The notes beneath the pieces are model-generated. The model saw only the letters and a program-made list of their open reading frames with translations. It was not told the origin of the DNA and did no database searches. A program made the position numbers and the translations under genes. 64,000 bases of DNA from Bacteroidota bacterium (GTDB lineage: Bacteria; Bacteroidota; Ignavibacteria; Kryptoniales; JAKASW01), in contig JAMCQL010000075.1 of assembly GCA_023381615.1 (NCBI GenBank), forward strand, positions 5,500 to 69,499, written 5' to 3'. This document shows positions 33,006 through 61,614 of the stretch, one piece after another; positions within the stretch are counted from its first letter, which is position 1, and the number at the start of each line of letters is the position of its first letter.

Positions 33006-33417
33006 ATAGCAAGAAGTCAGAAGTGAGAAGAGCATCGCGGATTGCGAATTGCCGATTGAGAAGGGCAGTCAACAGTGAAGCGTTCTCTTTTGTCATCCTG
33101 AATTCAGTGTCTAGTGTAGTGCACAGATAAAACGTTACTGGAGGGAGGAAGAATAGATGAAAATAGAATATAGATGCAGAAACAGTCTTCGGCGTTTGTT
33201 CCGAGCACCTTCCTCAGATGAAACTGGTAGCCGAGAAGATTATCGAAGACCTGAAGACACAATGAACCTGAGTTGTTTCAACCACGTATGACGAACCCCG
33301 ACCTCCGAACCTTGAACCCGAAACGCCGAACTCAGAACCCCGAACCAATTTCTATGAGCAATGAGCTATAAGCTACATTCAGGCATCTGGAAACAAGCGT
33401 GAGGAAACCGGATTAGC

Positions 33418-33681
33418 TTGATTATAAGATTCACGCAGCACGCAATGAAGAAATTGAAGGAGCGAGCGATAGATCCTGTGGATGTTAAATGAGCGGTGGA
33501 GGTACCGTTTCTGAAGGAGAGCGATAAAACTTACCCTGGCATTATTCACTTCATTCGTGAGAAGGAGGGTAGGTATCGGAGAGTTCTTGGCAGGTTTGTA
33601 AACAGTGAAACGTTCTTGGTTGTAAGTGCGTTTTATGACAGAAGGCTGAAGAAAAGAGAGGGTAAAAATGCTCAACATTAG
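33418..33681 (+). pseudogene. DUF4258-like toxin gene with in-frame TGA (33490-33492)
   Basis: IRFTQHAMKKLKERAIDPVDVK*AVEVP...LVVSAFYDRR; overlaps the downstream DUF2283 start. Confidence 0.5.
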
Positions 33682-33868
33682 TTACGACAAGGAAGGCGAT
33701 GTGTTAGAGATAAAGTTTTCGGATGAGAAGATTGAAGAAAGTGAGTTCTTAGAAGAATCGGGCTTAGTTTTGGACTACGATTCGAAAGAAAACATTGTGG
33801 CGATCGAAATAGTGTCATTTTCGAAAAGGGTTTCGAAGAACGAGGCATTAGAGGCAATTGCGCTCTGA
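33668..33868 (+). CDS. DUF2283-family small protein (antitoxin-like)
   Basis: YDKEGDVLEIKF...NIVAIEIVSFSKR pattern. Confidence 0.8.
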   Translation: MLNISYDKEGDVLEIKFSDEKIEESEFLEESGLVLDYDSKENIVAIEIVSFSKRVSKNEALEAIAL

Positions 33869-34061
33869 TTTTGCATTTACCGTCGCCCAGTATGGGAATA
33901 TCTCACCGCTTACTGGCGTTTACGGTTTGCTCTGAACTCCTCACCCATCTGCCACGAGCTATGAGGCATGAGCAATCTTGCTTCTGGTTTCTTGCCTCTG
34001 ACTTCTGATTTCTTGTTTCTTCTTACTACCTACACCTACTCAGTGCCTGTTAACATGGTAA

Positions 34062-34181
34062 ATGCCTTACCGTGTCACGTTCCGTCCGGAGACTGAACAA
34101 GATTTTAAACGGCTCGACTCACAAGTAGCTGAACGAATATTGCGCAAGGATCAAGTGGTTGTCCGAAAATCTCGAATTTGA
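34062..34181 (+). pseudogene. RelE/ParE-family toxin N-terminal fragment, frameshifted
   Basis: MPYRVTFRPETEQDFKRLDSQVAERILRK then WLSENLEF in another frame. It merges at ~34172 with the 3' tail of a four-helix-bundle gene (SNLINGFIRYLKNSPRQR*, to 34228). Confidence 0.4.
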
Positions 34182-34305
34182 TAAACGGTTTCATAAGATA
34201 CTTGAAGAATTCTCCTCGTCAGCGCTGAACATCTCCAACTCTGAACCTTGGACTTATATTATACAACTTTGAACTTTTACCACCCTGAACACCGAACATA
34301 ATAAC

Positions 34306-34529
34306 ATGAAGAAAGCTTTAATTACCGGAATCACCGGCCCCCGATATGCTTCGCAACGGGGCAGGCAGGACGGTTCCTATCCTACAGGCCTACCGAAGTT
34401 GATATGTTGGTCGGTGATGCATCCAAGGCAAAGGCAAAATTAGGCTGGGAGCCGAAGACAAAATTTGAAGAGTTGGTTAAATTGATGGCGCGAGCCGACT
34501 ACGAGAAGGTGAAGAAGAGAGGGTATTAA
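34306..34529 (+). pseudogene. gmd: mini-gmd: first ~25 codons (with 27-nt hairpin insert) fused out of frame to the last ~48 codons
   Basis: [25 protein letters not shown] | [48 protein letters not shown]. Confidence 0.8.
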
Positions 34530-34650
34530 TGTCCTCGTTCACCTGTATTGGAAGGTTGATGATGCGGAAGTTGTCAGGAAGCTGGGAGGTATCTCACAAG
34601 TCGAAGATTTTTTGAGAGAAGTTTCTAAATTAGCTGCCTGAACCCATTAT

Positions 34651-34716
34651 CATTACAATAATCCAGAGATCAGCGGCAAGAAGCTCTTTCTTCATCACGG
34701 CGATGTGACTGATACA
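34651..34716 (+). pseudogene. gmd: internal gmd scrap
   Basis: [22 protein letters not shown]. Confidence 0.7.
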
Positions 34717-34983
34717 AGAGACGTGGACGAAGAGTCCATTTCGTGGAAACTTATATTTGGTTCTGACACAGATTTGCAACTCTCGTTTTCAAAATGGGGG
34801 TTCTCGTTCACGTCTCAAGGGCATCTCTAAAAACTAATTTGTTTCACCGCGGAGACGCAAAGACGCTGAGAAAAAATTATAAAAAAAGATACTCTGCGAC
34901 TTCGCGCCTTTGCGGTGAAAAATATTTTGGGGTTTTTCGAGATACCCTCAAGTAATTTGAATCGCCTTTTGGAAAAGATTATT

Positions 34984-35073
34984 CCCGATGAGATATACAA
35001 TCTTGCGGCAATTGAGATAGTCTCATTTTTGAAGAGGGTTTCGAAAAACGAGTCTATAGAAGCACTTGTGCTA
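34984..35073 (+). pseudogene. chimeric scar: gmd PDEIYNLAA joined directly to a DUF2283 C-terminus
   Basis: PDEIYNLAA|IEIVSFLKRVSKNESIEALVL (compare 33668..33868 ...IEIVSFSKRVSKNEALEAIAL). Confidence 0.6.
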
Positions 35074-35122: not shown

Positions 35123-35596
35123 ATGAAGACAGAAGATCTGTTCCAAAGATTTCTTGAAGTTATCGATGCACTTGAGAAAGAAAAAGTCGATTATCTCCTT
35201 GTCGGCGGGTTTGCAGTCGTTTTACATGGAATGCCACGGCTTACACAAGATTTAGATCTCTTTGTTAAAGCAAATGGAGATAATATTGCCCGATTACAAA
35301 AAGCCTTGTACTCCGTATTCGATGATAAAAGTATTTTTGAGATTACAAATACGGAGCTTCAAAATTATCCTGTAATTCGCTATGGATCGGATGAAGGATT
35401 TTCTATCGATGTCATTTCAAGAATAGGAGAGTCTTTTGCGTTTGAGGATCTGCAGTACGAGGAGTTGAATGTTGATGGACACACGGTAAAAATAGCAACG
35501 GCGGAAACGCTCTACCGGCTTAAGGAAAAAACATATCGTGCTATTGACCAAAACGATCTAATTTTTTTGAAAGAATTAATTTCCCGAAAGAAATAA
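35123..35596 (+). CDS. small nucleotidyltransferase-fold protein (putative TA component)
   Basis: VDYLLVGGFAVVLHGMPRLTQDLDLFV motif. Confidence 0.6.
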   Translation: MKTEDLFQRFLEVIDALEKEKVDYLLVGGFAVVLHGMPRLTQDLDLFVKANGDNIARLQKALYSVFDDKSIFEITNTELQNYPVIRYGSDEGFSIDVISRIGESFAFEDLQYEELNVDGHTVKIATAETLYRLKEKTYRAIDQNDLIFLKELISRKK

Positions 35597-35827
35597 ATGC
35601 CGGTTCAAAAATTCAAAACCTTTGATGAAGCTTCTAAAGCTTTATGGAACTTCGCCCCAGACGAGGATTATTACAAAAGGGTAGAAAACTTTTATAAGCT
35701 TGCTTCCCAGCTAATTACTCTTTCTGCTATGAGAGGCATTTACAAGTTTCACGATCTTGAAGAAGTCGAGCAACATCGAATGGAATTTTTGTTGCAGAAC
35801 AGTTTACCCCGGGGGCGCAAAAAATAG
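35597..35827 (+). CDS. small hypothetical protein abutting the nucleotidyltransferase gene
   Basis: ATG immediately after the upstream TAA. Confidence 0.45.
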   Translation: MPVQKFKTFDEASKALWNFAPDEDYYKRVENFYKLASQLITLSAMRGIYKFHDLEEVEQHRMEFLLQNSLPRGRKK

Positions 35828-36464
35828 AACAATTTCAAGAAAGTTTCAATAATCGGACTCGGCTGCATTAAACTTCGGACGGTGGCTGTGCTCGCTCGCG
35901 GATGTCCATTTTGCCAAGTTGGGTTCGTAAAAGAATGACGGTTAGCCATGCGTGTCGAACTTTTCATACAACTTCGATTCGTGATCATTCGTGACATTCC
36001 CCGCTGAGGCGGGGCAGGCTGTGGAAGATATGTTCGTGACATTTGTGGAAGAAAAGTTAGCGTACATTCGTGAAGAAGATCACTTTTCATCGCTTCGCAA
36101 AATACGACCTTTTAACCTTGAACCCTGAACCCCGAACCGAAAACAGGACAACAGAGATAGCGTCTATCTACCTACGGTATCGTAGATACGAGGTCGATGA
36201 CTCTCTACGAGACCGTAGGTCGACTCGTCGAGCCGTAGGCCGTAGGTACGACTCGTCGAGGTCTATCGACCTCCACGAGTCGTCGACTCCTCGGAGTCGT
36301 AGACCGAAGGGTCGTGGACAAGTCGTTGACCTGCGGACTGGCGTCGTATTCAAAGTGGGCTTATACCGTATCAGCCTCTGCTCGGCGGTCATCGTGAATG
36401 GCGCATTGGTTGTATCTACATGATGCGTACCAGCTGTTCTCCCTTGTTGCTATGAGCCGCGTAA

Positions 36465-36702
36465 ATGGGTAAATACGATAAGCTGTTATCAAAGATACTC
36501 GAAGGAACTTCTGATGCCAATATACGGTTCGATGAATTGTGTCAGTTACTGCTTAAGTTAGGATTTGAAGAGCGCATTTGCGGTAGTCATCACATTTTTA
36601 GAAGAGAAGGTAAATCTACAGCGAGATGCAGACAAGGCGAAAATGTACCAGGTACGCCAGGTCCGCAATGTGATTCTGAAGTATGGATTGAGGTTATCAT
36701 GA
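36465..36702 (+). pseudogene. hicA: HicA-family toxin, frameshifted
   Basis: N-part ...GSHHIFRREG. The C-part VNLQRDADKAKMYQVRQVRNVILKYGL is in the +1 frame (compare intact 57258..57509). Confidence 0.6.
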
Positions 36703-36920
36703 AGAGAGATGGGAAGATGAAATATGTGAAGAGAAGAAAGCTTGCAGATTTCTCGAAAGACCGGGAAGAGATGGACTATTGGTCCTCAAGAACGATTGAG
36801 GAGAGACTTGAGGCTGTCGAAATCCTCAGGGCGCGGTGGCAGAAGTTCAACGAATCAAAAAGAGGAAATGGAGACTTCAAAGGACTTCGAAGAGTTCTTC
36901 GAGTTACTCAACTCTCGTAA
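36699..36920 (+). CDS. small hypothetical protein
   Basis: ATGA overlap with the hicA remnant; EEMDYWSSRTIEERLEAVEILR. Confidence 0.4.
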   Translation: MKRDGKMKYVKRRKLADFSKDREEMDYWSSRTIEERLEAVEILRARWQKFNESKRGNGDFKGLRRVLRVTQLS

Positions 36921-37308
36921 AGTCCGCTACATGGTCGTCGGCGGGTATGCATTTGCCGTCCACGCAAAGCCAAGGTACACCGGCGATATAGATGTTTTTG
37001 TAGATTCGAGTATTACAAACGCGCAGAATTTACTGAAAGTTCTTGAAGAGTTTGGTTTCGGTGAATTGGGCATATCCCTGGAAGATTTGACGAAGGCCGA
37101 TCAGGTGATCCAGCTCGGTAATCCTCCGCTGAGAATAGACATCCTGACATCGATTTCCGGTGTGTCCTTTCAGGAAGCATGGAAAAACAAAATAACAGGG
37201 AAATATGGCGAGCAGGGAGTCAATTTCATCGGCAAGGCTGATCTGATCAAGAACAAGAAAGCATCCGGACGAAAAAAAGACATGCTTGATATTGAGGATC
37301 TGCAGTGA
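36868..37308 (+). CDS. small nucleotidyltransferase-fold protein (paralog of 35123..35596)
   Basis: ATG 36868 after AGAGGA; VRYMVVGGYAFAVHAKPRYTGDIDVFV. Confidence 0.6.
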   Translation: METSKDFEEFFELLNSRKVRYMVVGGYAFAVHAKPRYTGDIDVFVDSSITNAQNLLKVLEEFGFGELGISLEDLTKADQVIQLGNPPLRIDILTSISGVSFQEAWKNKITGKYGEQGVNFIGKADLIKNKKASGRKKDMLDIEDLQ

Positions 37309-37356: not shown

Positions 37357-38002
37357 ATGAAGAAGGCCTTGATAACCGGCATCGCCGGCCCCCGATATGC
37401 TTCGCAACGGGGCAGGGAGGACGGTCCCTATCTTGCTGAACTTCTTTTAGAAAAGGGCTACGAAGTTCACGGGATAATCCGACGAAGCAGCTCGTTCAAC
37501 ACCGGCAGAATTGATCACCTCTACAATAATCCAGAGATAAACGGCAAGACGCTATTCCTTCATTATGGTGACGTTACCGATACAAGCAATCTAAACAGGC
37601 TGCTCAAGAATGTCGAGCCGGATGAGATATACAACCTTGCGGCCCAGAGCCACGTCAAAGTCTCATTTGAGGTGCCGGAATATACGGCTGAGGTGGATGC
37701 TGTGGGCACGCTTCGTTTTCTCGATGCAATAAGAGAGACGGGCTTAAAGACGAAATTCTACCAGGCGTCAACGAGCGAACTCTTCGGCAAAGTGCAAGCG
37801 GTGCCGCAAAATGAGAAGACTCCCTTTTATCCGCGAAGCCCTTATGGCGTTGCTAAGCTGTATGGGTACTGGATCATTAGCGAAGAAGGAATTAGGATGG
37901 GAACCGAAGACGAAATTCTCCGAATGGATCTCTTCGGGAGAGGAGTTGGTCAAATTGATGGCGCGGGCCGATTATGAAAAGGTCAAGAAGAGGGGGTATT
38001 GA
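37357..38002 (+). pseudogene. gmd: gmd with large internal deletion (about 175 N-terminal codons + ~40 C-terminal codons, out of frame)
   Basis: Track ORFs 37357..37977 and 37811..38002. Has the 27-nt hairpin insert and a second 24-nt insert (SEWISSGE) in the C-terminal part. Confidence 0.85.
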
Positions 38003-38200: not shown

Positions 38201-38436
38201 ATGGAAAACGATTTAATTCAGCGAATCACAATAAACCCTGATAATTTGGTGGTAAGCCCATTATACGGGGTATGCGAATTGCGGTGGAGCATATTTTGGG
38301 CATGTTAGCTGCCGGGTCAACGACAGAGGAGATATTAGAGGGATATCCTTATCTTGAAAGGGAGGACATTCAAGCATGTTTATTGTATGCCTACCGACTT
38401 TCCGCACATGAACGCTTTGAGGCAGTCACGTCGTAG
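38201..38436 (+). pseudogene. DUF433-family antitoxin-like gene, frameshifted
   Basis: MENDLIQRITINPD... then GMRIAVEHILGMLAAGSTTEEILEGYPYLEREDIQACLLYA in another frame. Confidence 0.6.
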
Positions 38437-38552: not shown

Positions 38553-38903
38553 ATACAAATGATATGGCTCTGTTCAGCTGATGCGCTCGCCGTCAATGCT
38601 TCAGGCCGCTCGTGGGACTCTGTGCGCCATGCACTTTGCTTGTTTAACATCGAACCTTTGCGCCTGAGGTCGATCTACGGCCTACGGCTCGACGAGTCGA
38701 CCTACGGTCTCGTATCTACGATACCGTAGGTAGAGAGTCATCGACCTCGTATCTACGATACCGTAGGTAGATAGATTCGTAGAACGGCATCGTAGATTGA
38801 CGACTCGTCGAGGGCATCCGCCTTCGGCGGAGAACCCAGAACGCCGAACTTCGAATCCGCCTCATTCGAGTTGGCGCTCGGGCATACGGTTGTCAATTTA
38901 TGA

Positions 38904-39170
38904 ATGAGAGATGCAGGGAGTGCTAATTTGGCCAAGAGCAATCTTGAGATTACAAGGCATGCCAGGCGGCGAATGAAATGGAGGAGAATAACAGAAGAAG
39001 ATGTCCGCGCCACGATTGATGAGCCCGACAAAACCGAAGAATCCGTTAGCGGCAGGAAAAACGTTTACAAAGAGATCGGTGTGAGGTATATTAAAGTGAC
39101 CTACAGAGAGATTGCCAATAAATTAGTGGTGATTAGTGCAGTTGATAAAGGAAAAGGAGAGATGAGATGA
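38904..39170 (+). CDS. DUF4258-like toxin
   Basis: LEITRHARRRMKWRRITEEDVRATI...LVVISAV. Confidence 0.7.
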   Translation: MRDAGSANLAKSNLEITRHARRRMKWRRITEEDVRATIDEPDKTEESVSGRKNVYKEIGVRYIKVTYREIANKLVVISAVDKGKGEMR

Positions 39171-39385
39171 AAATAGAGTATAGCAAGGATGCCGACGCTA
39201 TTTATGTTTATTTCAAAGAGGATTTCGTGGCACAGTCGAAGGAGGTAGAAGACGGTGTCGTGATAGATCTCGATGAGAAAGGGCACCTTATCGGCGTTGA
39301 AGTGCTGGATGTAAGCCGGCGATTTACCCTCTCAGATATCGCTAATGTGAATATCGAAAATCTTCCGGTGGAAATTGCAGGGTGA
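39167..39385 (+). CDS. DUF2283-family protein
   Basis: MKIEYSKDADAIYVYF...GHLIGVEVLDVS. Confidence 0.85.
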   Translation: MKIEYSKDADAIYVYFKEDFVAQSKEVEDGVVIDLDEKGHLIGVEVLDVSRRFTLSDIANVNIENLPVEIAG

Positions 39386-39593: not shown

Positions 39594-39745
39594 GGAGATA
39601 GGGAGAGCGAGAGAAGCGGGGAATGACGACGCTGGGCAACGTTCTTGAATGTCTATTGATGCTGCGCTATTTTAATTGTGGTCAGTTTTCAACGAAAGTT
39701 AAATGATCCAATGGGAACGGAACGTCTCTTGTGACTTTGGATAAA

Positions 39746-39811
39746 GAGAAGGGATACAAAGTCCACGGGATAATCAGAAGAAGCGGTTCGTGCGATATCG
39801 GCAGGATCGAC
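39746..39811 (+). pseudogene. gmd: degenerate gmd scrap
   Basis: [22 protein letters not shown]. Confidence 0.6.
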
Positions 39812-39900
39812 TGTTGTGCTTCAGATTGAAGTGTCCCGACAAGGGTCGGGATCCTGCGGAGAATTTTCTCGGATCAAATTAAGAGAAAAGGAGACAGACA

Positions 39901-40167
39901 ATGGAATTTTACACAATGGTATTGAGAAAGAGCAAGTCAAATTGGGTAGCGCTCTGCCTTGAAAATGGATTGGTAGGGCAGGGTGCCACAAAAGATGATG
40001 CAGCTAGAAAACTCAGAGAGGCCATAGAGTCTTTTGAAGAAGAACATGAAAGAAACAGAGATGTATATAGTGCACCTTTATCTATAGAGGAATTGCATGA
40101 ATTCCTATCTGTTGAGGGGAAGGAGCCTGTTATTGAGGAATATGAACTAAGGGCGGTGCATGCCTAA
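39901..40167 (+). CDS. hicB: HicB-family antitoxin
   Basis: YTMVLRKSKSNWVALCLENGLVGQGATKDDAARKLREAI. Confidence 0.75.
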   Translation: MEFYTMVLRKSKSNWVALCLENGLVGQGATKDDAARKLREAIESFEEEHERNRDVYSAPLSIEELHEFLSVEGKEPVIEEYELRAVHA

Positions 40168-40398
40168 AAATATACCTGCTCTTAAACCACGAGAACTTGT
40201 CAGGATTCTTGAAACAGGCGGATGCTTGTATTTGCGAGAAGGCAAGGGAATCACAGGTTGTATTTTCGTTATTGTGAAGGAAGGAAGAGAGTTGTTCCAA
40301 TTGATATGGGAGCAGGAGAGTTGTCCCCACCGTATGTCTTGCGTATTTTTAGACAATTTGGTTTTACCGATGAAGAGGTAGAGACTTTATTAAAGTAA
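40160..40398 (+). pseudogene. hicA: HicA-family toxin, frameshifted near 40290
   Basis: MPKNIPALKPRELVRILETGG... then VVPIDMGAGELSPPYVLRIFRQFGFTDEEVETLLK* in another frame. Confidence 0.6.
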
Positions 40399-40615: not shown

Positions 40616-40900
40616 TTGAAGATTGCTCGAGTAATTTGGCTCGAAGACATAGCTGAAAAAATAAGACGAAAGCATGGTGTTAACCAATCGGAGGCTGTGG
40701 AGGTTTTGAAGAATCAGCCCTTATTTCGGTTTGTCGAAAAGGGCTATCGGAGAGGAGAAAATGTTTATGTTGCTCTTGGTCAAACGAATTCCCGACGATA
40801 TTTGGCCGTGTTTTTCGTACACAAGAGCGGCAATCAGGCGTTGATCATCTCAGCGAGAGACATGACGGATTCGGAAAGGAGGAAATATGAGGAAAGATAA
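40616..40900 (+). CDS. BrnT-like toxin
   Basis: KHGVNQSEAVEVL...GENVYVALGQT..RYLAVFF...LIISARDMTDSERRKY; TTG start. Confidence 0.6.
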   Translation: MKIARVIWLEDIAEKIRRKHGVNQSEAVEVLKNQPLFRFVEKGYRRGENVYVALGQTNSRRYLAVFFVHKSGNQALIISARDMTDSERRKYEER

Positions 40901-41156
40901 GAGTTCGATTTCGCAGGCATCGTCGTACAAAGAAATAGGTGAATTTTGGGATTCACATAGTCTGTCAAAATTTTGGAAGGAAACGGAACCGGCAAGGTTT
41001 TCTGTTGATGTTCAGTCGGAGCAAATCTACTATCCAATAGATAGCGAGTTGTCGGCAAAGATTGATGGAATAGCGAAGCGGCGCGGAATAAGTTCAGAAA
41101 CGCTTGCAAACCTATTGTTGCAGGAGAAAATACGACAGATGAAGAAGTCTGCCTGA
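40887..41156 (+). CDS. BrnA/CopG-like antitoxin
   Basis: EIGEFWDSHSLSKFW... and C-terminal RHH-like ISSETLANLLLQEKI. Confidence 0.65.
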   Translation: MRKDKSSISQASSYKEIGEFWDSHSLSKFWKETEPARFSVDVQSEQIYYPIDSELSAKIDGIAKRRGISSETLANLLLQEKIRQMKKSA

Positions 41157-52256: not shown

Positions 52257-52636
<380 letters not shown>

Positions 52637-52944: not shown

Positions 52945-53012
52945 TGAAATTCTTGGCGAACGAGAATTTTCCTTTTTTTAGTATTGGCCTTCTGGTTGCC
53001 CAGCTCTTTTGA
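52944..53012 (+). pseudogene. 22-codon stub of the DUF5615 partner
   Basis: MKFLANENFPFFSIGLL... then stop. Confidence 0.5.
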
Positions 53013-53061
53013 TTTCGCGTTACAGCAGGTAAGGTTGAAGCTGAAAATCAAGCGATGACGC

Positions 53062-53394: not shown

Positions 53395-53636
53395 TGAAAA
53401 CGTTCGAGCAATGTCCGGTTTGTGGTGGTGAGTTGGTTGAGAAAGAAGTGGAGAAGCTCCTCAGGGGCGGAGTGCATACGGCGGTATTTAGAGTGCAAGC
53501 TGACGTATGCCTGAGATGTGGAGAGCGATTATATTCGGCTGAAACAGTCAGGCGCTTCGAGCAAATCAGGCAGAAGCTGGAAAAGCGGGAGGTCGCGGAG
53601 TTTCAGCCACTAGGACAAACCTTCGAGGTAGTGTAG
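53394..53636 (+). CDS. YgiT-type zinc-finger antitoxin
   Basis: CPVCGG...VCLRCGERLY; TGATG overlap with the upstream gene. Confidence 0.8.
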   Translation: MKTFEQCPVCGGELVEKEVEKLLRGGVHTAVFRVQADVCLRCGERLYSAETVRRFEQIRQKLEKREVAEFQPLGQTFEVV

Positions 53637-53857
53637 ATTGTCAGAAGCTGGGTTGGATGATTAAGAGTGCAGAAGACAGATGTTCGACATCCAGGGTACA
53701 CCTCAAACTTTGAACTCTGAACCCTGAACTTTCAACCCCGAACATTGAACCCTCTTGCTTCTGACATCTGACTTCCGATTTGTGACATCTGTCTTCCGCC
53801 CTTTGCCCGGAGTTTATCCCGCTTGACGAGAAAGTCACTCCGCAATGGAAGCACACA

Positions 53858-54094
53858 TTGAAGTTCACTAAATACTTTGAGGGGATGCGCAGTCGCCCAG
53901 ACCGAGGCATAATCAAGAAAGAGTGGATACAACAGGTCATCGATACTCCCGTGAGGGAGGTCGTTCAGAAGGATGGCCGAATCCGTCTGTGGGCACCCAT
54001 TGAGGAAATGGGGGGTAGGTTCTTACGTGTTATATTGCTTGAGGATCGCGAAACAGTCCACAATGCTTTCTTCGATCGGAGGTTTAGATTATGA
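53858..54094 (+). CDS. small toxin-like protein upstream of DUF2283 (family uncertain)
   Basis: Position and size. GRIRLWAPIEEMGGRFLRVILLEDRETVHNAFFDRRF is recalled from similar gene pairs. Confidence 0.45.
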   Translation: MKFTKYFEGMRSRPDRGIIKKEWIQQVIDTPVREVVQKDGRIRLWAPIEEMGGRFLRVILLEDRETVHNAFFDRRFRL

Positions 54095-54288
54095 AGATAA
54101 AATACTTTCAGGATACCGATACTCTCTATATTGAATTTCGGGAAAAGGAAATAGTGGAGACGAAGGATCTGGATGAGGATACCTTGCTGGACATCGACCA
54201 AGATGGAAATATCTGCGCAATTACCGTCGAACATGCTAAGGAGCGAACGAACATCCCACAATTTTCTTTTGAGCAGATCGCAGCTTGA
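54091..54288 (+). CDS. DUF2283-family protein
   Basis: KYFQDTDTLYIEF...GNICAITVEHA. Confidence 0.8.
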   Translation: MKIKYFQDTDTLYIEFREKEIVETKDLDEDTLLDIDQDGNICAITVEHAKERTNIPQFSFEQIAA

Positions 54289-54311
54289 TTGCTGCTTCGA
54301 TCTCCAAGCCC

Positions 54312-54432
54312 GTACCCCGACCCGACAACTACGAACTCTAAACGCAGGCCTCCTAACCCTGAACCCCGAACCTTGAACCCCGAACCACGAACTCCGAACC
54401 CAGAATCCCGAACCAAGAACAGCGAACCTGAA
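54312..54432 (+). repeat. heptamer tract
   Basis: GAACCCCGAACCTTGAACCCCGAACCACGAACTCCGAACCCAGAATCCCGAACCAAGAACAGCGAACC. Confidence 0.8.
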
Positions 54433-54630
54433 ACAGGAGAACCGGAGAAAGGGTCTACGGCTCGACGAGCCGTCAACGACCCTATCGGGTCGCAGACCCG
54501 TAGGGAGCCGTCGACCTCGTAGAGGAGAAGCGGAGAAGTTAAGAGGGATTACTTTTGGATATGCGTGCGGGGTTGTATATGATTGATGGGTTTGGTTATG
54601 TTGTTGCCTGTCAAAGAGGAAAGGACTAGA

Positions 54631-54843
54631 ATGAATCGAGAACAAGTCGAAGAAATATTCAGTGCCTTGAACGGACTGCCATCCGAAAAAGTCACGGAGG
54701 TCAAGGATTTTGTTCTATTTCTAAAGGAGCAGTACGGTTTCTGTAAGACGGTCCATGAAGGGGACTCGTGGAGCCAGGAGGATATCGACGACCTCACAAA
54801 GGCGGTTTTGAATTACGCCGATGCGGACGAACGGCAACCGTGA
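54631..54843 (+). CDS. DUF2281-like antitoxin
   Basis: LPSEKVTEVKDFVLFLKEQ. Confidence 0.55.
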   Translation: MNREQVEEIFSALNGLPSEKVTEVKDFVLFLKEQYGFCKTVHEGDSWSQEDIDDLTKAVLNYADADERQP

Positions 54844-55172
54844 TGGTCGAACCGGGCGACGTTGTTACCGTAGATTTCCCAGGGACACTGGGAACCAAAC
54901 GACGTCCTGCTGTGGTGGTTTCGACAGAAACGTACCATGCGTCTCGCCCTGATGTTATTCTTGCGCTCCAGACAAGTCAGACCACAAAAGCAGCAAGCCC
55001 GACGGATTACATTTTGCAGGATTGGAGCATCGCTGGGCTGCGGAACGCCTCAGCTTTGCGTTCTTTTCTCGCAACTGTCCCTGCTTCAAGTGTTTCTGTA
55101 GTAGGGCACCTGTCAAGCCGTGACTGGCAAGAAGTACAAGCACGTTTACGAATAGCGTTGGCCGTTGCCTGA
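54843..55172 (+). CDS. PemK/MazF-family toxin
   Basis: PGDVVTVDFPGTLGTKRRPAVVVS; TGATG overlap with the upstream gene. Confidence 0.8.
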   Translation: MVEPGDVVTVDFPGTLGTKRRPAVVVSTETYHASRPDVILALQTSQTTKAASPTDYILQDWSIAGLRNASALRSFLATVPASSVSVVGHLSSRDWQEVQARLRIALAVA

Positions 55173-55605
55173 AGAACCTCGATGTTAAATTCCGACTCTC
55201 GTTACTGATTACTGTCTCTTGCCATCTTTCCGCTGACTGCTAAATGCTGATATGTTTTAACTATTCACTTTTCATTTTTCACTGCTCCATCAGCGAGGCC
55301 TAACCCGCCTCCAGTTGTTCCTTTGCCTCGGTCACAGAAGCAATAGAGCGCGTGAATGGTAGACAGTAGGTAGGGGGTAAGTAGTGACCTGCACTGCTAT
55401 GGCAAGTCACGCGGCGGCCGTGGGCTTAGCAAAGATGCAGGAAGGGCAGGAAACGGTGAAAGGACCCATTTGGTGGGTTCAGACATGACCAGACGCCAGT
55501 GGAGTGAGAGATTCTGATTATGGGAAGGACGTCTTAGATGTGGAATAGTCAATGCTGGTATGATAACTTTATTTTTTTATATGATGAAAAGGAAGCGTTA
55601 AGGTC

Positions 55606-55881
55606 ATGATGGAAACAAAGACAGCATATAAGTATATCGTGAAAAAATACGGGGATAATGAGCCTGTAATCGAAAACACGAGGATTAGTGTTAGAGACAT
55701 TGTGGAACAATGGAGACTCGGCTCAACTCCGGAAGAGATTACGATGGCATACCCGCATATAAATCTGTCTCAGGTTTTTGAGGCATTGGCTTATTATCAA
55801 GATAATATGGGCGAGATCGAGCATTTCATTGAAATAAACAAAGTCTCGGAGAGTCTTAGTGGTAAGCCTTTATCTCGATGA
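55606..55881 (+). CDS. DUF433-family protein (near-identical copy of 46031..46306)
   Basis: One aa difference (RISVRD here, RICVRD in the other copy). Confidence 0.8.
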   Translation: MMETKTAYKYIVKKYGDNEPVIENTRISVRDIVEQWRLGSTPEEITMAYPHINLSQVFEALAYYQDNMGEIEHFIEINKVSESLSGKPLSR

Positions 55882-56083
55882 GGATATTCACGGGCTTTTG
55901 GCGGTATTGTTGAGGGCAAGAAACATATCGGTTGAGACTACGCAAGAAAGCAGAATGCTCGGCAAAGAAGATCGGGAACAACTGGAGTATGCGACGAAGA
56001 GAGGCGCTGCCATTGTGACCCACAATAGGGTCGATTTCGAGAAGTTATTTGCAGATTATACTGATATGGGGCATAAGCTATGA
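55859..56083 (+). CDS. DUF5615-family protein (identical translation to 46284..46508)
   Basis: Track ORFs have the same sequence. Confidence 0.7.
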   Translation: MVSLYLDEDIHGLLAVLLRARNISVETTQESRMLGKEDREQLEYATKRGAAIVTHNRVDFEKLFADYTDMGHKL

Positions 56084-56116: not shown

Positions 56117-56214
56117 CCCGAACCCCGAACTACGAACTAAGAACCCCTAACTTCGAACCCCGAACCTTGAACCTCGTACCACGAACTCCGAACCCAGAAC
56201 CCCGAACCACTAAC
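56117..56214 (+). repeat. heptamer tract abutting a gmd stub
   Basis: ...GAACCCCGAACCTTGAACCTCGTACCACGAACTCCGAACCCAGAACCCCGAACCACTAAC-ATG. Confidence 0.85.
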
Positions 56215-56324: not shown

Positions 56325-56612
56325 ATGCCAATTCCAGTAGAAGTTAGACCGCTTGATAGATATCGGTTGTGGGTGAAGTACTCAGACGGGACTGAGGGCG
56401 TTGCCGATTTGTCGGACCTTGTTGGCAAGGGAGTCTTTGCACTCTGGAATGATTATGAAGAATTTAAGAAAGTTCATATAGGCGCGAGCGGCGAAATTGC
56501 CTGGAGCGAGCAGATCGACGTGTGTCCGGACGCAATCTATCTTAAGATTAGCGGCAAGAAACCCGAAGACTTGTTTCCGCGATTGAAAGAAATGACTAGT
56601 CAGCGTGCCTGA
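56325..56612 (+). CDS. DUF2442-family protein
   Basis: LWVKYSDGTEGVADLS...IAWSEQIDVCPDAIY. Confidence 0.8.
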   Translation: MPIPVEVRPLDRYRLWVKYSDGTEGVADLSDLVGKGVFALWNDYEEFKKVHIGASGEIAWSEQIDVCPDAIYLKISGKKPEDLFPRLKEMTSQRA

Positions 56613-56865
56613 AATCAGCCGCTTCTTTGGCATTGTCATCAGGATGTACTTTGACGATCATTTGCCGCCACACTTCCACGCAGAGTACGGTGAATATAAG
56701 GCAGTTGTGGAAATTCAGAGCCTGATGGTTATTGGCGGCTACTTTCCACCGCGCGCATTGGGATTGGTTGTTGAATGGGCAACGCTACATCGTGACGAGC
56801 TGCTTGAAGTCTGGGACAGGGCCGTCAAACTGCAGCCCTTACCGAAGATTCCGCCACTTACATAG
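56605..56865 (+). CDS. DUF4160-family protein
   Basis: MPEISRFFGIVIRMYFDDHLPPHFHAEY. Confidence 0.85.
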   Translation: MPEISRFFGIVIRMYFDDHLPPHFHAEYGEYKAVVEIQSLMVIGGYFPPRALGLVVEWATLHRDELLEVWDRAVKLQPLPKIPPLT

Positions 56866-57257: not shown

Positions 57258-57509
57258 GTGAAGGACAAAGTGCTGAGCACGGTGCTTTCCGGGTTGTCGG
57301 ATAAGAACGTAAGATTTGAGGATTTGAGAAAGTTGCTTTTGAGACTGAATTTTACCGAGAGGAACAAAGGAGATCACCACATATTTCATAAGGAACATGT
57401 GGCTGAGATCATAAACCTGCAACCTCTCAATGATGGCAAGGCGAAAGCGTATCAGGTAAAGCAGGTAAGAAATCTGTTGCTGAAATACAAACTGCATAAT
57501 GAGGGATGA
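57258..57509 (+). CDS. hicA: HicA-family toxin (intact)
   Basis: GDHHIFHKEHVAEIINLQPLNDGKAKAYQVKQVRNLLLKY; GTG start. Confidence 0.8.
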   Translation: MKDKVLSTVLSGLSDKNVRFEDLRKLLLRLNFTERNKGDHHIFHKEHVAEIINLQPLNDGKAKAYQVKQVRNLLLKYKLHNEG

Positions 57510-57510
57510 A

Positions 57511-57720
57511 ATGCACAGGTATGAGCTCGTTATTTACTGGAGTATGGACGACGCATCTTTTGTGGTTGAAGTACCTGAACTTCCAGGGTGCATGGCTGAC
57601 GGGAAGACCTATAATGAAGCGGTGAAGAATGCGGAAGTTGCGATCGATGAATGGATCGATACAGCAGAAGAATTAAAGAGAGAGATACCCAAACCTAAAG
57701 GCAAACTGGCGTACGCATGA
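57511..57720 (+). CDS. hicB: HicB-family antitoxin
   Basis: YELVIYWSMDDASFVVEVPELPGCMADGKTYNEAVKNAEVAI. Confidence 0.8.
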   Translation: MHRYELVIYWSMDDASFVVEVPELPGCMADGKTYNEAVKNAEVAIDEWIDTAEELKREIPKPKGKLAYA

Positions 57721-58703
57721 TTCGTCTTCCGTATGACTATCTGTATTTCCATGCGGCTTTGTCGAAGCCTGAACGGCGAACCACGAAGCGGGATCGCTAT
57801 GCCCCGTGCACCCCGTCCCGAACTTCGAACCAGGAACTAAGAACCTTTCACTGCTTACCACTATCACCTATGAGCCCAATTGCCATCAGCTAATTCAACC
57901 CCGAACCACGCACTACGAACTCTGAACTTCGAACTCTATGCGCCATGCTCTTTGCTCTTCAACCCTGAACACACAACATGCAAGGATTAAGTTTGTGTGA
58001 AAAAGATCATAGGAGTTGGAAAACGCTCACAAAGCTCTTGAAGTCTTCCTGCGGCTCTATTATATTGAGGCCAGAGATTTTTTTTGAGCGTCGGTTGACC
58101 AATCAAGCTTACTTGCAGAGAGCACCGGAAGAAACTCTGTCGCTATGTGCCATGAGCGAAAGCAGCTGATAGTCGCAGATCCGCCTCCGGTGGACAGTTA
58201 GCTCATAACTGATAGGAAGAAAAGCCTGTTTTGGTTTCCTGCGGTTGCTATGAGCCATGAGCCACAACCTATGAGCTACCCTGTGAGTGAGTCACCGCAA
58301 GTCGGGATCGCGACAAGCGCGAATGGCGAAGCCGACCGAAGGGAGGTGGCGCTGAAAGCGCCACTGGGTCCGATGGGACTCAGATGGCGAAGCTGTGAGA
58401 AGAGCGTGGTGCAGAGAGCATGGAGCAAAGAGCATAGAGCGGGAATGAGGAGTTCGGAGGATCGTGATTTCGAAGTGCTGTCTCCTCCCGCATTGCGAGA
58501 AGAGACGAGCCGCGACTGAGTCGGGCGAATTTCGGATCGGTAATCAAATTAATCCTATAAATCCTGGTCGAAATCATGAGAATCCCGGTCCAAGATGCAA
58601 GGTGCCGGCGGCGAGCATGAATCGGGTACCCCGGATCCTCTTACGGATCACTTCGAACCTTAAATTGAGAACCTTTGAATCCGCGGCAAAATGTTGAGGG
58701 GCA

Positions 58704-58967
58704 GTGAAGAAAGTCGAGATCATTCCAGTCGCGCAAAGAAAAGCAGAGAAACGGGGAATAAAAGTCGAATGGATAACTGATGCAGTTACAAATCCTGCTC
58801 AAGTAGTAAGTGGCTATGGCGGAAGAAGGGTCGCGCATAAGTTGATTTGGATTGACGAAAAGGAATATCTTCTGAGAGTCGTTTATGAGGACGACAACGA
58901 GGTGTTTACCGTCGTGACAGCTTATATTACGTCACAGATAAAACGTTACTGGAAGGAGGAAGAGTAG
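58704..58967 (+). CDS. DUF4258-like toxin
   Basis: AQRKAEKRGIKVEWI...YLLRVVYEDDNEVFTVVTAY. A 3' scrap of a paralog lies at 33125-33158. Confidence 0.65.
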   Translation: MKKVEIIPVAQRKAEKRGIKVEWITDAVTNPAQVVSGYGGRRVAHKLIWIDEKEYLLRVVYEDDNEVFTVVTAYITSQIKRYWKEEE

Positions 58968-59186
58968 ATGAAAATAGAGTATGATCCAAAGCATGATCTT
59001 TTGAACATTGAGTTTATCCCGGGTGAGAGTATCGGCGAGTCCAGCGAAACCGATGGAGTGATTATCGATTACGCAAAGGACGGCAGGATAGTCGCTATTG
59101 AGATTTTGGATGCGGGAAAGCGGACGACCAGAAACCCGCTCGATCTGCTTGACCTTTCCATAGTGAAGGAGAAAGCAACTGTATGA
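58968..59186 (+). CDS. DUF2283-family protein
   Basis: MKIEYDPKHDLLNIEF...GRIVAIEILDAG. Confidence 0.85.
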   Translation: MKIEYDPKHDLLNIEFIPGESIGESSETDGVIIDYAKDGRIVAIEILDAGKRTTRNPLDLLDLSIVKEKATV

Positions 59187-59370
59187 TTATGATAATGTTT
59201 GGCTTAATGCCGGAACCGGTCGGCGGCAAAATCTCCTCTTTGACTCGCCGCCAGGAATAAGGCCTCGAAATCTCAGAACACTTCGAACCATGAACCCTGA
59301 ACATGGAACCCTGGATCTCTCATGTGGAGTCTACCCCGTTTTCAACGGGGCTCTCTGCTCCATGCGCCCA

Positions 59371-59498
59371 ACCACGAACCACGCACCAAGAACCATGAAC
59401 CTTGAACACCGAACCCTGAACATTGAACGCTGAACATCTAACCCTGAACCCCGAACCTTGAACCTCGTACCACGAACTTCGAACTCCGAACCACTAAC
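59371..59498 (+). repeat. heptamer tract (~17 units) abutting a gmd start
   Basis: ACCACGAACCACGCACCAAGAACCATGAACCTTGAACACCGAACCCTGAACATTGAACGCTGAAC...GAACCACTAAC-ATG. Confidence 0.85.
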
Positions 59499-60082
59499 AT
59501 GAAAAAAGCCCTCATCACCGGTATCACCGGCCAGGACGGCTCATATCAAGCCGAACTTTTACTCGAGAAGGGATACGAAGTCCACGGGATTATCAGAAGG
59601 TCCAGCTCTTTCAATACCGGACGTATTGATCACCTCTACAATAATCCTGAGATAAACGGCAAGACGTTTTTCCTCCACTACGGTGACGTCACCGATACGA
59701 GCAATTTGAACAGGCTTCTTGAGAAAGTGGAGCCCGATGAGATATACAACCTGGCAGCCCAGAGTCATGTCAAAGTCTCCTTTGAAGTGCCTGAATATAC
59801 CGCCGAGGTAGATGCCGTTGGCACTCTTCGTTTCCTCGACGCGATAAGAGAGACAGGACTTAAAACGAAATTTTACCAGGCATCGACGAGTGAACTTTTT
59901 GGCAAAGTCCAGGCTGTCCCCCAGAATGAGAAGACTCCGTTTTATCCGAAGTTGATATGTTGATAGGTGATGCTTCGAAAGCAAAAGAGAAGCTCGGCTG
60001 GAAGCCGGAGATAAAGTTTGAACAATTGGTTAGCCTGATGGCGAAAGCCGATTTCGATGAGGTGAGGAAACGAGGTTTTTAG
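59499..60082 (+). pseudogene. gmd: gmd with internal deletion (~150 N-terminal + 44 C-terminal codons, out of frame)
   Basis: ...EKTPFYP|[44 protein letters not shown]. Confidence 0.85.
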
Positions 60083-60232
60083 TCTCTTACAAGTAAAGTC
60101 TGTGAAATAAGACCAAGAAATTGCACACCAAAAAAACACGGAAAGAACTGATGACCACAGATGAAATCTCTTTTTTAAATGATAAAAACCCGTGAGAATC
60201 TGTTTCATCTGTGTTATCCGTGTGCCATCTTT

Positions 60233-60292
60233 GGTTTCGGTTCAGCCGAGTAGGAGTTCTGGGTTCTTCGTTCGAAGATATCGGTTCGAAGT
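60233..60292. repeat. reverse-orientation heptamer tract downstream of the last gmd remnant
   Basis: GGTTTCGGTTCAGCCGAGTAGGAGTTCTGGGTTCTTCGTTCGAAGATATCGGTTCGAAG. Confidence 0.65.
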
Positions 60293-60477
60293 CGGACGTT
60301 TCCCGAGTGTGGAGCCTACAGGGGTCTGCGACAAAAATATAAAACACATAGGCACATAGGGCACATTAACGAATAAATCTATGTTTTCTAATGTGCCTAT
60401 GTGGTTAATCTATTGCTTTTTACAAATTTGTCGCAGACCCAGCCTACAGGTGTTATTGGAGATTTCAATGTAGTTTT

Positions 60478-60768
60478 ATGATATTACAGGTGCGTGAAAG
60501 GATGGTGAAGGAAACGATGGCGGATGTAGATTGGAGAAAACACATCAATTCTGATCCGAATGTTTTGGTCGGCAAACCGGTAGTCAAGGGAACCAGACTA
60601 TCCGTAGAATTTCTTCTAGGTCTGTTCGCTGAAGGTTGGACTGAGAGGCAGGTCCTTGAAAACTATCCCACTTTATCATCCGAGAGCCTGCGGGCAGTTT
60701 TCTCTTTTGCCACAGAATGCATGCGTGAAGAGTCTGTGTATACCATACCGACCAGTACGACGCGATGA
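60478..60768 (+). CDS. DUF433-family antitoxin-like protein (start uncertain, ATG 60502 or 60517 possible)
   Basis: INSDPNVLVGKPVVKGTRLSVEFLLGLFAEGWTERQVLENYPTLS. Confidence 0.8.
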   Translation: MILQVRERMVKETMADVDWRKHINSDPNVLVGKPVVKGTRLSVEFLLGLFAEGWTERQVLENYPTLSSESLRAVFSFATECMREESVYTIPTSTTR

Positions 60769-61127
60769 ATCTACTGGCAAATGAGAATTTCCCTCTTCTC
60801 AGTGTTCGGTTACTTCGCACTGCGGGCCACGATGTGGCAAGTGTGATCGAGGATAACCCGGGAGCCAGCGACGAGGATGTCTTGAAACGAGCAAGTCAGG
60901 AGAAGCGGGTCGTGTTGACATTCGATAGAGACTATGGTGAGTTAGTTTATCGCTACAAGTCATTCCCGCCGTCCGGCATCCTGTATTTCCGTTTTGATCC
61001 ATCGGCACCGGAGGAACCTGCTCAAATCCTCTTGACCATCATGGAGGGAGGTAAGGTGGTGATCCCGGGTAAGTTCACAGTAATCGAGAGGGGCAGAATA
61101 CGACAGAGAGCACTTCTCAAGACATAG
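60765..61127 (+). CDS. DUF5615-family (PIN-like) toxin-like protein
   Basis: LLANENFPLLSVRLLRTAGHDV...VVLTFDRDYGEL. Confidence 0.8.
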   Translation: MNLLANENFPLLSVRLLRTAGHDVASVIEDNPGASDEDVLKRASQEKRVVLTFDRDYGELVYRYKSFPPSGILYFRFDPSAPEEPAQILLTIMEGGKVVIPGKFTVIERGRIRQRALLKT

Positions 61128-61176
61128 GTAGTCGTTAATTTGTTAGTTATTAGTTCAAAGGAGGGCTGAAGTCGGG

Positions 61177-61542
61177 ATGAAGATTACTAGGTTCGAAGAT
61201 ATCGAAGTCTGGAAAGAAGGGAGGCTCTTGGTCGTTGACGTTTACAAAGCTTTGTCGAAGGTGAAAGACTTTGGATTCAGGGATCAGATACAGAGAGCTG
61301 CCATCTCCATTACATCCAATATCGCCGAAGGATTTGACAGAGGAAGCAATAAGGAGTTCATTCAATTCTTGACCATTGCGCGCGGATCAGCCTCGGAAGT
61401 TAAGAGCGAGGCATACAATGCACTGGATCTGGGGTACATTGATTCCAAAACCTTTGATGACTTGTCTGCAAGATCCCTTTCGGTGTCGAACCTGATAAAC
61501 GGCTTCATAAGATACCTGCGAAATTCCGGTCGACAACGTTGA
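61177..61542 (+). CDS. four-helix-bundle protein (23S rRNA IVS family)
   Basis: MKITRFEDIEVWKEGR...QIQRAAISITSNIAEGF...GSASEVKSEAY. Confidence 0.85.
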   Translation: MKITRFEDIEVWKEGRLLVVDVYKALSKVKDFGFRDQIQRAAISITSNIAEGFDRGSNKEFIQFLTIARGSASEVKSEAYNALDLGYIDSKTFDDLSARSLSVSNLINGFIRYLRNSGRQR

Positions 61543-61545
61543 CTT

Positions 61546-61614
61546 CTCAACCTTCAACCTTGAACTTTGAACTCTGAACCCTGAACTTTCAACCCCGAAC
61601 AATGAACCCTGAAC
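61546..61614 (+). repeat. heptamer tract that runs into the fcl start (ATGAACCCTGAAC)
   Basis: A near-identical copy without a gene lies at 53701-53752. Confidence 0.8.

Follow-up and report, generated by a model that had tools for sequence, protein, structure and literature searches.

Long arrays of small gene cassettes are best known from sedentary integrons, such as the Vibrio superintegron, and from clusters of attC sites lacking integrase (CALINs), in which mostly promoterless, co-oriented cassettes of variable content, rich in toxin-antitoxin (TA) modules that stabilise the array, are expressed from one end. Here we describe an array that appears to resemble them in these respects, located at 33.0-61.6 kb of a 64-kb stretch (the window) of contig JAMCQL010000075.1 from an Ignavibacteria metagenome-assembled genome (MAG; GCA_023381615.1). 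It differs from integrons in being devoid of IntI, attI and attC, in lying inside a biosynthetic operon, in being delimited by imperfect 7-nt tandem tracts and decaying pieces of sugar-nucleotide genes, and in having junctions that resemble homologous or illegitimate joins rather than site-specific ones. On balance, we favour the view that the array is a recombination-built accretion zone of selfish TA-type modules, promoter-proximal in a polysaccharide operon.

Several other systems share part of this architecture. Capsular loci of Bacteroidota are headed by UpxY, a NusG paralogue, and O-antigen and capsule loci are replaced by recombination. The window likewise has a NusG-like first gene followed by wza, wzz and a long co-directional operon and, as in serotype-locus replacement, its flanking sugar-gene alleles appear ancient, very diverged and exchanged by homologous recombination; to our knowledge, neither dozens of stacked TA modules nor successive 5′ fragments of the leading biosynthetic gene are known from such loci. 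Homology-facilitated illegitimate recombination and Campbell-type insertion-duplication, studied in Acinetobacter and Streptococcus pneumoniae, provide a one-sided anchor, an imprecise far join and a truncated copy of the anchor gene left behind, all of which have counterparts here, but as single laboratory events rather than as a 28-kb natural array. The pdif modules of Acinetobacter plasmids, which are bounded by inverted 28-bp XerC/D sites and depend on a housekeeping enzyme, are also small, include TA pairs and have no recombinase nearby, whereas the tracts described here are direct repeats; repeat searches of the window, none of them aimed at XerC/D sites, returned no recurrent 28-bp site. 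Comparable heptamer repeats are represented by the short tandemly repeated repetitive (STRR) sequences of cyanobacteria. The intergenic TAACTGA heptamer repeats of Beggiatoaceae, Cyanobacteria and Bacteroidetes have been proposed to act in translation (PMC4679880). The tracts of the array share with both a 7-nt period, tandem arrangement, strand polarity, a mostly intergenic position, often very close to a start codon, occasional in-frame copies in genes and a patchy distribution across phyla. In contrast to TAACTGA repeats, which have not been described in connection with gene-cassette arrays, the unit here is NNNGAAC, 58 of 59 matches lie in one operon, and the tracts are coupled to gene stubs and TA modules. 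Literature searches on the accessions and on TA arrays in polysaccharide loci yielded integron papers and the TAACTGA paper only and no description of such an array; the association of heptamer tracts with cassettes and gene stubs is new.

All sequences compared are metagenomic assemblies, and the exact-match look-ups used reach near relatives only. The MAG origin of the window, the joint presence of related lineages in the same samples and the frequency of contig ends at tracts and at position 62492 could all be taken to mean that a metagenome assembler concatenated strain variants of a hypervariable locus. However, a JGI contig of 61 kb (Ga0189856_1003618) reproduces the array in the same order at 99.5-100% identity, as do four NCBI MAGs (GCA_027400995.1, GCA_023484005.1, GCA_021791435.1 and GCA_027404255.1) and, in other samples, numerous megahit and Logan contigs; jointly these sequences cover 18.7-62.5 kb. 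Different assemblers and samples thus return an identical cassette order. Collinearity across at least five independent assemblies indicates that the array is not a chimera, and its repeats, being 64-91% identical, are too diverged for de Bruijn graph collapse. An assembly artefact is therefore very improbable and largely refuted already.

To define the cassette content, stop-to-stop segments of at least 40 amino acids (aa) on the + strand of 33.0-61.7 kb were translated and scanned against Pfam. About 29 small TA-type or four-helix-bundle modules were recovered between 33.0 and 61.6 kb, all on the + strand, in agreement with the roughly 30 co-oriented modules initially counted between wzz and fcl. 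DUF2283 was found eight times, DUF433 six times (two of them fragments), DUF4258 five times, HicA/HicB-type domains five times and DUF5615 three times; zinc-finger antitoxins (a YgiT finger and an MqsA-like one), small nucleotidyltransferases (DUF2204/AbiEii-like and DUF6036) and four-helix-bundle genes of the 23S_rRNA_IVP family (TIGR02436) were each found twice, and BrnT/CopG, MntA(Polbeta)/HepT, PemK/MazF, DUF2442/DUF4160, UPF0175 and a DUF7718 fragment with DUF5647 once each. At least 12 pairs are complete, comprising MntA/HepT, BrnT/CopG, MazE-like/MazF, two HicAB, two DUF4258/DUF2283, two DUF4258/zinc-finger, DUF433/DUF5615, DUF2442/DUF4160 and a nucleotidyltransferase with its partner, the remainder being orphans or fragments. 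Predicted toxin and antitoxin domains are encoded in these pairs by adjacent or overlapping small genes, as in type II TA systems. The only minus-strand gene detected in the array (Pfam, segments of 66 aa or more) is the dead IS630 noted before. PADLOC recognised no defence system in the array, returning weak AbiEii-like and PDC-S09 matches only; NCBIfam provided no name for eight unassigned small open reading frames (ORFs), and Rfam no known RNA family.

Small, TA-rich, co-oriented and promoterless-looking cassettes are what an ordinary sedentary chromosomal integron or a CALIN would contain. Yet no integrase or other recombinase turned up when the array was scanned against Pfam in six frames and the ORFs elsewhere in the window were scanned as well. 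A search for attC sites (imperfect palindromes of 55-141 nt with RYYYAAC and GTTRRRY cores at cassette 3′ ends), made as a screen for core pairs able to form hairpins, gave 8 candidates versus 4.0 in shuffled sequences, a chance level, the only folding one being a miniature inverted-repeat transposable element (MITE). The inverted repeats that are present belong to MITEs or to elements resembling repetitive extragenic palindromes (REP-like). With neither intI nor attC, neither of which had been seen on first inspection either, the array is not an integron or CALIN, and a reading as either is barely credible.

The spacers between modules are instead marked by heptamer tracts. Triple units of GAACNNN (GAACNNNGAACNNNGAAC) number 59 in the window, where 0.00 are expected, 57 of them on the + strand and 58 within 33.3-62.8 kb. 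In the array, they merge into ~20 tracts of 3-18 units, all in spacers and none inside a TA gene, in which the unit sequence varies and GAAC alone is conserved. All on the + strand, the tracts, (NNNGAAC)n, lie at 33290-33345, 36117-36137, 38829-38849, 41213-41233, 43965-43999, 45172-45254 (11 units), 46542-46706 (two tracts), 47941-47975, 48732-48881 (two tracts), 49529-49570, 52381-52428, 53709-53750, 54358-54427, 56117-56207 (11 units), 57817-57934 (two tracts), 59282-59491 (4 and 14 units) and 61559-61614. The last overlaps the fcl start codon and is one unit shorter in contig L009, so that unit number is polymorphic; the tract at 53709-53750 is a copy of this fcl leader together with the first three fcl codons (ATG changed to ATT). 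Scans of genome and metagenome contigs with the delimiter pattern produced single matches per locus and no further array. In these scans, GAAC tracts were found before gmd in Chthoniobacter, Luteolibacter and Opitutia and in unnamed contigs; in several Verrucomicrobiota without an array, the gmd that follows the tract is intact. Within the window, one heptamer tract lies in frame inside the coding sequence of ugd (24963-24983). In L021 (Luteolibacter sp. CP121322.1, 1-8000), a tract is followed by a gmd stub of 61 aa. Each of the polysaccharide and sulfate-assimilation genes there is bracketed by GAACNNN tracts, in sense orientation upstream and in antisense orientation downstream, and positions 3535-3981 hold a gene for a RAYT-like Y1 transposase. 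In other lineages, tandem tracts likewise occupy spacers next to inserted IVP and TA modules (L079, 12404-12488, 13952-13999 and 15514-15575; L064, 1352-1375 and 2779-2864); their period is again 7 nt (or 8 nt), but their units are very different from those of the window (TGATAAG, TAGTGCT, TTCACTC, AACCACG and GAGAAGAT).

The proximity of tracts to start codons raises the possibility of passive accumulation, whereby modules arrived singly, carried by insertion sequences (IS) or MITEs or joined illegitimately, and were tolerated because co-directional insertions do no harm in an antitermination-protected operon, with the tracts serving as RNA-level punctuation (unstructured leaders, translation or processing signals) but taking no part in DNA rearrangement, and the gmd and fcl pieces being debris. 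Tracts placed 6-9 nt before gmd starts and across the fcl start, without a Shine-Dalgarno sequence, do resemble TAACTGA repeats (PMC4679880), tracts precede intact gmd genes in several Verrucomicrobiota, the array contains no strong terminators, and IS, MITEs, REP-like elements and a group II intron have been active in the locus. Nevertheless, most tracts not adjoining a gmd stub are 50-330 nt away from the next start codon, and the gene remnants described below are left unexplained by such a scenario.

Nine gmd remnants are interspersed with the modules. Pieces of gmd located by tblastn with full-length GMD comprise eight N-terminal stubs (19-165 codons), four C-terminal scraps and three internal scraps; tblastn found no intact gmd in the 64-kb window and no fragment of aa 166-298 anywhere in it. 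The stubs begin at 34306 (to 34530; aa 1-20 fused to aa 299-337, with a Pfam match to the C-terminal part), 37357 (to 38005; aa 1-165 followed by out-of-frame aa 308-337, with a deletion junction of its own), 44005 (to 44187; aa 1-61), 45263 (to 45403; aa 1-38), 48890 (to 49039; aa 1-50), 52437 (to 52639; aa 1-32 and a C-terminal scrap), 56215 (to 56271; aa 1-19) and 59499 (to 60085; a deletion allele with a 154-aa ORF, aa 1-151 plus a KLIC tail, and an overlapping ORF for aa 303-338), and the internal scraps lie at 34654-35010 (aa 47-95 and aa 54-87) and 39716-39826 (aa 13-49), all on the + strand. Seven of the eight stubs begin 6-9 nt past a heptamer tract, the exception being, as initially reported, the stub at 37357, which is preceded by a CATAACAAC leader only. 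The proposal that gmd 5′ pieces delimit the cassettes thus holds insofar as they recur, but not in the sense of a fixed recombination site, since stub length ranges between 19 and 165 codons, internal deletions erode the stubs, and many diverged gmd alleles have contributed them.

Pairwise Nei-Gojobori comparison of the N-terminal parts yielded proportions of synonymous differences (pS) of 0.5-0.82 and of non-synonymous differences (pN) of 0.00-0.10, with dN/dS of 0.02-0.04 over 150 codons and no stop codons. Such near-synonymous-only divergence indicates that at least six alleles diverged under selection, rather than one copy drifting in the array; neutrally drifting intra-array duplicates are ruled out by dN/dS of 0.02-0.19 and the lack of stop codons. 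Four of the stubs carry a 27-nt in-frame, partly palindromic insertion (CCCGATATGSTTCGCRACGGGGCAGG) in the loop encoding the NADP-binding GxxGxxG motif (34340-34365, 37391-37416, 45297-45322 and 52471-52496), which is better conserved than the flanking coding sequence. The insertion was found neither elsewhere in the window nor in other lineages, and its confinement to four gmd stubs rules out a dispersed mini-element. The deletion junction of the 59.5-kb copy (…PFYP/KLIC followed by a stop codon) is common to lineages B and C (lineage A being the window and lineages B, C and D its relatives) and to five more protein clusters, and at this junction the stop of the truncated gmd ORF is overlapped by the start of a 41-aa ORF. 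The resulting truncated gmd of 154-155 aa (59499-60085 in the window, 4733-5319 in L043, 7559-8145 in L068, and proteins P0153 and P0155-P0158) has the same junction in at least six lineages with dN/dS of about 0.03 and saturated dS, a ratio that would be unexpected for a pseudogene.

The fcl gene tells a similar story. Although the flanks are, as annotated at the outset, upxY-wza-wzz on one side and fcl-rfbF on the other, fcl itself proved to be broken and partly duplicated. Allele 1 (61602-62490, + strand) encodes aa 1 to ~293 and is frameshifted by a 47-nt in-gene tract (62196-62244), and allele 2 (62491-63144, + strand) encodes aa ~122 to the end and contains a 54-nt in-frame tract (62719-62774), which is translated in frame; the two overlap by 477 nt at 78.8% nucleotide identity. 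Gain or loss of units in such in-gene tracts, the 47-nt tract shifting the frame of allele 1, would permit on/off switching. Contigs JAMDEH010000048.1 and Ga0189856_1025244 both end at 62490-62492, the junction between the alleles, and that two independent contigs end at the same base suggests a population heterogeneous at this point.

Scanning genome contigs with the Wzz protein uncovered no relative with an orthologous locus. In lineage B, however, Wzz falls in the same 90%-identity protein cluster (88% nucleotide identity) and is followed by DUF4258/DUF2283, ParDE, a tract, a gmd stub, RelB/PIN, a second tract, the gmd deletion allele, DUF433 and DUF4258. Where lineage B has ParDE, the window retains 124 nt of a ParE gene. 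The block at 52799-55623 is 97-98.8% identical to lineage B, compared with 88% for wzz and 68-77% for the adjoining gmd remnants. Lineage C represents a different genome and a different locus, headed by a 781-aa Wzc and containing IVP, MntA/HepT, HicAB, a 223-aa ugd stub, DUF4258/DUF2283 and a 62-aa gmd stub, as well as DUF2442/DUF4160, HicB, a nucleotidyltransferase and more. At least nine of its cassettes have counterparts in the window (71-91% identity), although their order is not the same; the gmd-stub-to-DUF2442/DUF4160 adjacency is kept, the window's stub having been shortened by internal deletion. Lineage D has a TA array before an intact ugd and glycosyltransferases. In the complete genome of a distant relative, the order is wza, (TGATAAG)x12, IVP, wzz, a 7/14-mer tract, MntA/HepT, another 7/14-mer tract and biosynthesis genes, and in another distant relative neither modules nor tracts were found inside the operon. 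The arrays of these lineages indicate a recurrent architecture with variable content rather than a one-off, and with content differing between related lineages and order between genomes, 'cassette array' remains a fair term. Lineages B, C and D, too, have arrays in which no recombinase was found.

As judged from these sequence comparisons, the lesions shared by diverged alleles, the stacked fcl alleles and the mosaicism with lineage B point to frequent homologous exchange or conversion at gene starts. Passive accumulation accounts for none of them: the origin of eight gmd starts in six or more diverged alleles, the missing gmd middle, the common lesions, the fcl-leader copy at 53.7 kb, the mosaic identity to lineage B and the stub-to-cassette adjacency conserved between genomes are all left unexplained. 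We therefore deem it unlikely as a full account, although it is partly compatible with the recombination reading.

Several rearrangements bear on how the cassettes were joined and, with the fcl-leader copy and the variable unit number, suggest that tracts act as substrates of recombination and slippage. An internal duplication of 721 bp (97-98% identity) has a 3′ edge that fades out inside a tract, the first of the two at 46542-46706. In contig L010, sequence from 61.6 kb continues into that from 53.7 kb within 53 nt of tract homology, as would be expected for a circle or a tandem copy, which is suggestive only; look-ups with DUF2283 (54091) and fcl recovered no second contig of this type. Such a crossover inside a tract, with its circle or tandem-copy junction, could also reflect a dedicated, undescribed site-specific cassette system in which tracts are analogues of attC and attI, cassettes move as circles and the recombinase is encoded elsewhere. 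In keeping with this, tracts occupy ~20 inter-module spacers and never a TA gene, their strand polarity is strict (57/59 on +), the same cassettes are reordered in another genome, and tracts accompany modules in lineages B, C, D and L079 while being absent from L078, a relative free of modules. On the other hand, no recombinase is present in the 64 kb or in any related array; tracts range from 3 to 18 units of variable sequence, other lineages using other 7-mers or an 8-mer; they occur in frame in ugd and fcl and before intact gmd in array-free Verrucomicrobiota; the stubs of variable length look like traces of homologous or illegitimate joins, not of precise ones; and the 5′ edge of the 721-bp duplication is without a tract. 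Such a system is, in our estimation, distinctly improbable. Host recombination at portable homologies fits better than a dedicated integron-like machine, and no dedicated recombinase or new machine is needed by the evidence.

Under the accretion reading, the ancestral locus would have consisted of wza, wzz, an A/C-rich heptamer leader, gmd, a second leader, fcl and further sugar genes. As polysaccharide loci were exchanged between lineages, foreign array or locus DNA could have been joined to it by host recombination, be it crossover by RecA, conversion of short tracts or template switching during replication. As anchor would serve the only sequence common to all loci, namely the heptamer leader and the first gmd codons (those of fcl or ugd elsewhere). 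The far end would be joined imprecisely, or the incoming piece would be a circle or an ends-in fragment, and each event would leave a tract and a truncated gene start beside a block of small genes. Unequal crossing-over or conversion between direct repeats may then duplicate blocks, an outcome observed here, as well as reorder and delete them. Biosynthetic genes would be lost from the stacked remnants, and TA modules would stay until they decay because their loss is penalised (addiction), resulting in a ratchet. Only insertions co-directional with the antitermination-protected transcript would be tolerated, so that all modules would come to point in one direction and ride on operon transcription; gmd and fcl would have been destroyed along the way in this lineage.

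A number of observations weigh against this scenario. No recombination event is caught with certainty. With imperfect heptamer units, RecA would find few long stretches of perfect homology, ~40-53 nt being the most that is shared. The 5′ edge of the 721-bp duplication coincides with neither a tract nor a stub, and L010 is a single 955-bp, low-coverage contig that could be chimeric. Near-identical strains have a stable cassette order, differing by IS, a group II intron and small variants only. Nearly every gene from 5.7 kb on is on the + strand, which makes the co-orientation of the array somewhat less striking, and replication-strand bias contributes to it. Finally, the signature of purifying selection together with the shared lesions could mean that the 155-aa truncated gmd ORF is functional, in which case the reading of the stubs would change.

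A bolder version holds that tract and gene start together form a portable recombination site, an integrase-free analogue of the integron that would take up, reorder and swap TA/defence-type cassettes in polysaccharide operons of Ignavibacteria-like bacteria and possibly Verrucomicrobiota, with host recombination or an unrecognised recombinase as the enzyme and the 155-aa gmd ORF perhaps as a functional part; this we put forward tentatively, as possible but doubtful. If the accretion reading is true, selfish TA-type modules would find landing sites in long antitermination-protected surface-polysaccharide operons and be archived there, with short tandem leader repeats and first gene codons in the role of attC and integrase. 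Cassette arrays could then arise by a second route that needs no recombinase, and a concrete function would be assigned to the 7-nt tandem repeats that have long lacked an explanation in several phyla. In the serial gene remnants one could read a fossil record of successive polysaccharide-locus replacements. The locus also sets TA-type genes, with possible abortive-infection functions, beside phage-receptor polysaccharide genes.

The individual modules, all on the + strand and assigned by Pfam unless stated otherwise, begin with a 61-aa ORF of no family and a DUF2283 gene (33496-33868; DUF2283 9.9e-11), followed at 34056-34179 by the 124-nt ParE toxin remnant, which matches a portion of the intact lineage B ParE gene (L043, 2764-2886) at 89.5% and had first been taken for a RelE scrap. 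A DUF2204/AbiEii-like nucleotidyltransferase with a 76-aa partner (35123-35827; Pfam 2.7e-6, PADLOC AbiEii 1.5e-6) precedes a HicA fragment (36465-36744; profile positions 2-31), a DUF6036 nucleotidyltransferase (36742-37308), a DUF433 fragment (38245-38433; 7.5e-21, profile positions 8-56), a DUF4258/DUF2283 pair (38904-39385) and overlapping ORFs of 88 and 73 aa (39901-40381), which look HicBA-like by eye and have a weak DUF7387 match only. BrnT toxin and CopG-type antitoxin genes (40616-41156) are followed by ~1 kb without recognisable genes (41272-42378), adjoining the dead IS630; a 153-nt repeat at 41586-41738 recurs, 88% identical, at 58254-58406. The IS630-family transposase is broken into three minus-strand ORFs (42375-43631; DDE_3 and HTH_32/23/28/29), beyond which are an 85-aa orphan ORF (43649-43906; 80% to lineage C), the MntA (Polbeta nucleotidyltransferase)/HepT pair (44332-45163; 1.9e-16 and 2.9e-21), the DUF7718 fragment with DUF5647 (45399-45814), and DUF433 with a truncated DUF5615 (46031-46508), the older copy of the 721-bp duplication.

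Further along are HicB-like (UPF0150; 46858-47130) and DUF2283 (47612-47824) orphans, a DUF4258/YgiT-type zinc-finger pair (48081-48607), the first 23S_rRNA_IVP four-helix-bundle gene (49149-49547; 4.3e-31) and a 99-aa ORF with a HicB-like gene (49864-50371). UPF0175 (50980-51234; 3.3e-21), previously thought to be paired with a PIN-like gene, is an antitoxin-type orphan for which the Pfam scan found no PIN partner; a DUF2283 orphan (51338-51565) and a HicB/HicA pair (51737-52167) come next. A 3′ fragment of DUF433 (52801-52941) starts the block 97-98.8% identical to lineage B, which continues with a DUF4258/MqsA-like zinc-finger pair (53062-53636), a 78-aa ORF with DUF2283 (53858-54288) and a MazE-like ORF with PemK/MazF (54583-55172; 3.4e-12). 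DUF433 with a truncated DUF5615 at 55606-56083 is the 97-98% copy of 46031-46508. The remaining modules are a DUF2442/DUF4160 pair (56325-56865; 89.7% to lineage C), for which lineage C has the same stub-to-cassette junction with its 62-aa stub, a HicA/HicB pair (57258-57720), a second DUF4258/DUF2283 pair (58704-59186), DUF433 with a full-length DUF5615 (60478-61127; 3e-18 and 4.8e-23) and the second 23S_rRNA_IVP four-helix-bundle gene (61177-61542; TIGR02436).

The operon follows the UpxY-type order on a single strand, with a NusG-like (UpxY-type) gene at its head (27412-28050; Pfam NusG 2e-16), then a Wza-type polysaccharide export protein (28705-31119; Poly_export and SLBB), a Wzz chain-length determinant as the last intact gene upstream of the array (31920-33005; Wzz and GNVR) and biosynthesis genes, including an rfbF-like nucleotidyltransferase in the downstream flank (from 63250), all on the + strand. 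Best-hit names for relatives of Wza and GMD are Ignavibacteriae, Ignavibacteriales, Melioribacteraceae and Bacteroidota; going by these names, the uncultured host would belong to the FCB group and is probably Ignavibacteria-like. Intrinsic-terminator-like sites occur in the array at chance level, with no strong one on the + strand, an indirect hint at read-through, and the Bacteroidetes-type promoter pattern had no match in the array, the promoter-pattern and sigma-70 scans being of little information.

The rest of the spacer vocabulary consists of MITEs and REP-like elements, the latter clustered after genes as well as in array spacers. Two MITE copies of one family (47221-47375 and 52634-52797) have TAGAGAYGTGG..CGAAAA terminal inverted repeats; a second family is represented by a 143-bp element at 4881-5023, which is also found just upstream of the lineage B wzz (98%). 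Clusters of REP-like palindromes (CCTACGG/CCGTAGG, CTCGTAGAG and GTCGACTCGTCGAG, with GTAG/CTAC cores) occur in both orientations at 23319-23380, 28251-28387, 31127-31206, 36165-36275, 38665-38780, 41755-41855 and 47375-47475. The differences among the collinear assemblies, including the heptamer unit missing from L009, are population variants. One IS (end TGTCTTGTCCTGAAATAGGTTGACAC) is polymorphic at both 36731-36744 and 54345, and contigs L002, L003 and L050 diverge from the window at 36731-36744. GCA_027400995.1 carries a group II intron (RVT_1 and GIIM) at 47270, and contig L051 contains an inversion-type junction (50943/51470). At the far left of the window, positions 1-3800 include a DnaB-like helicase gene (1381-2577), ORFs without assignment and a partial tRNA (3721-3774), and are probably the remnant of an integrated element; an extracytoplasmic function (ECF) sigma/anti-sigma pair lies next to them on the minus strand (4002-5615).

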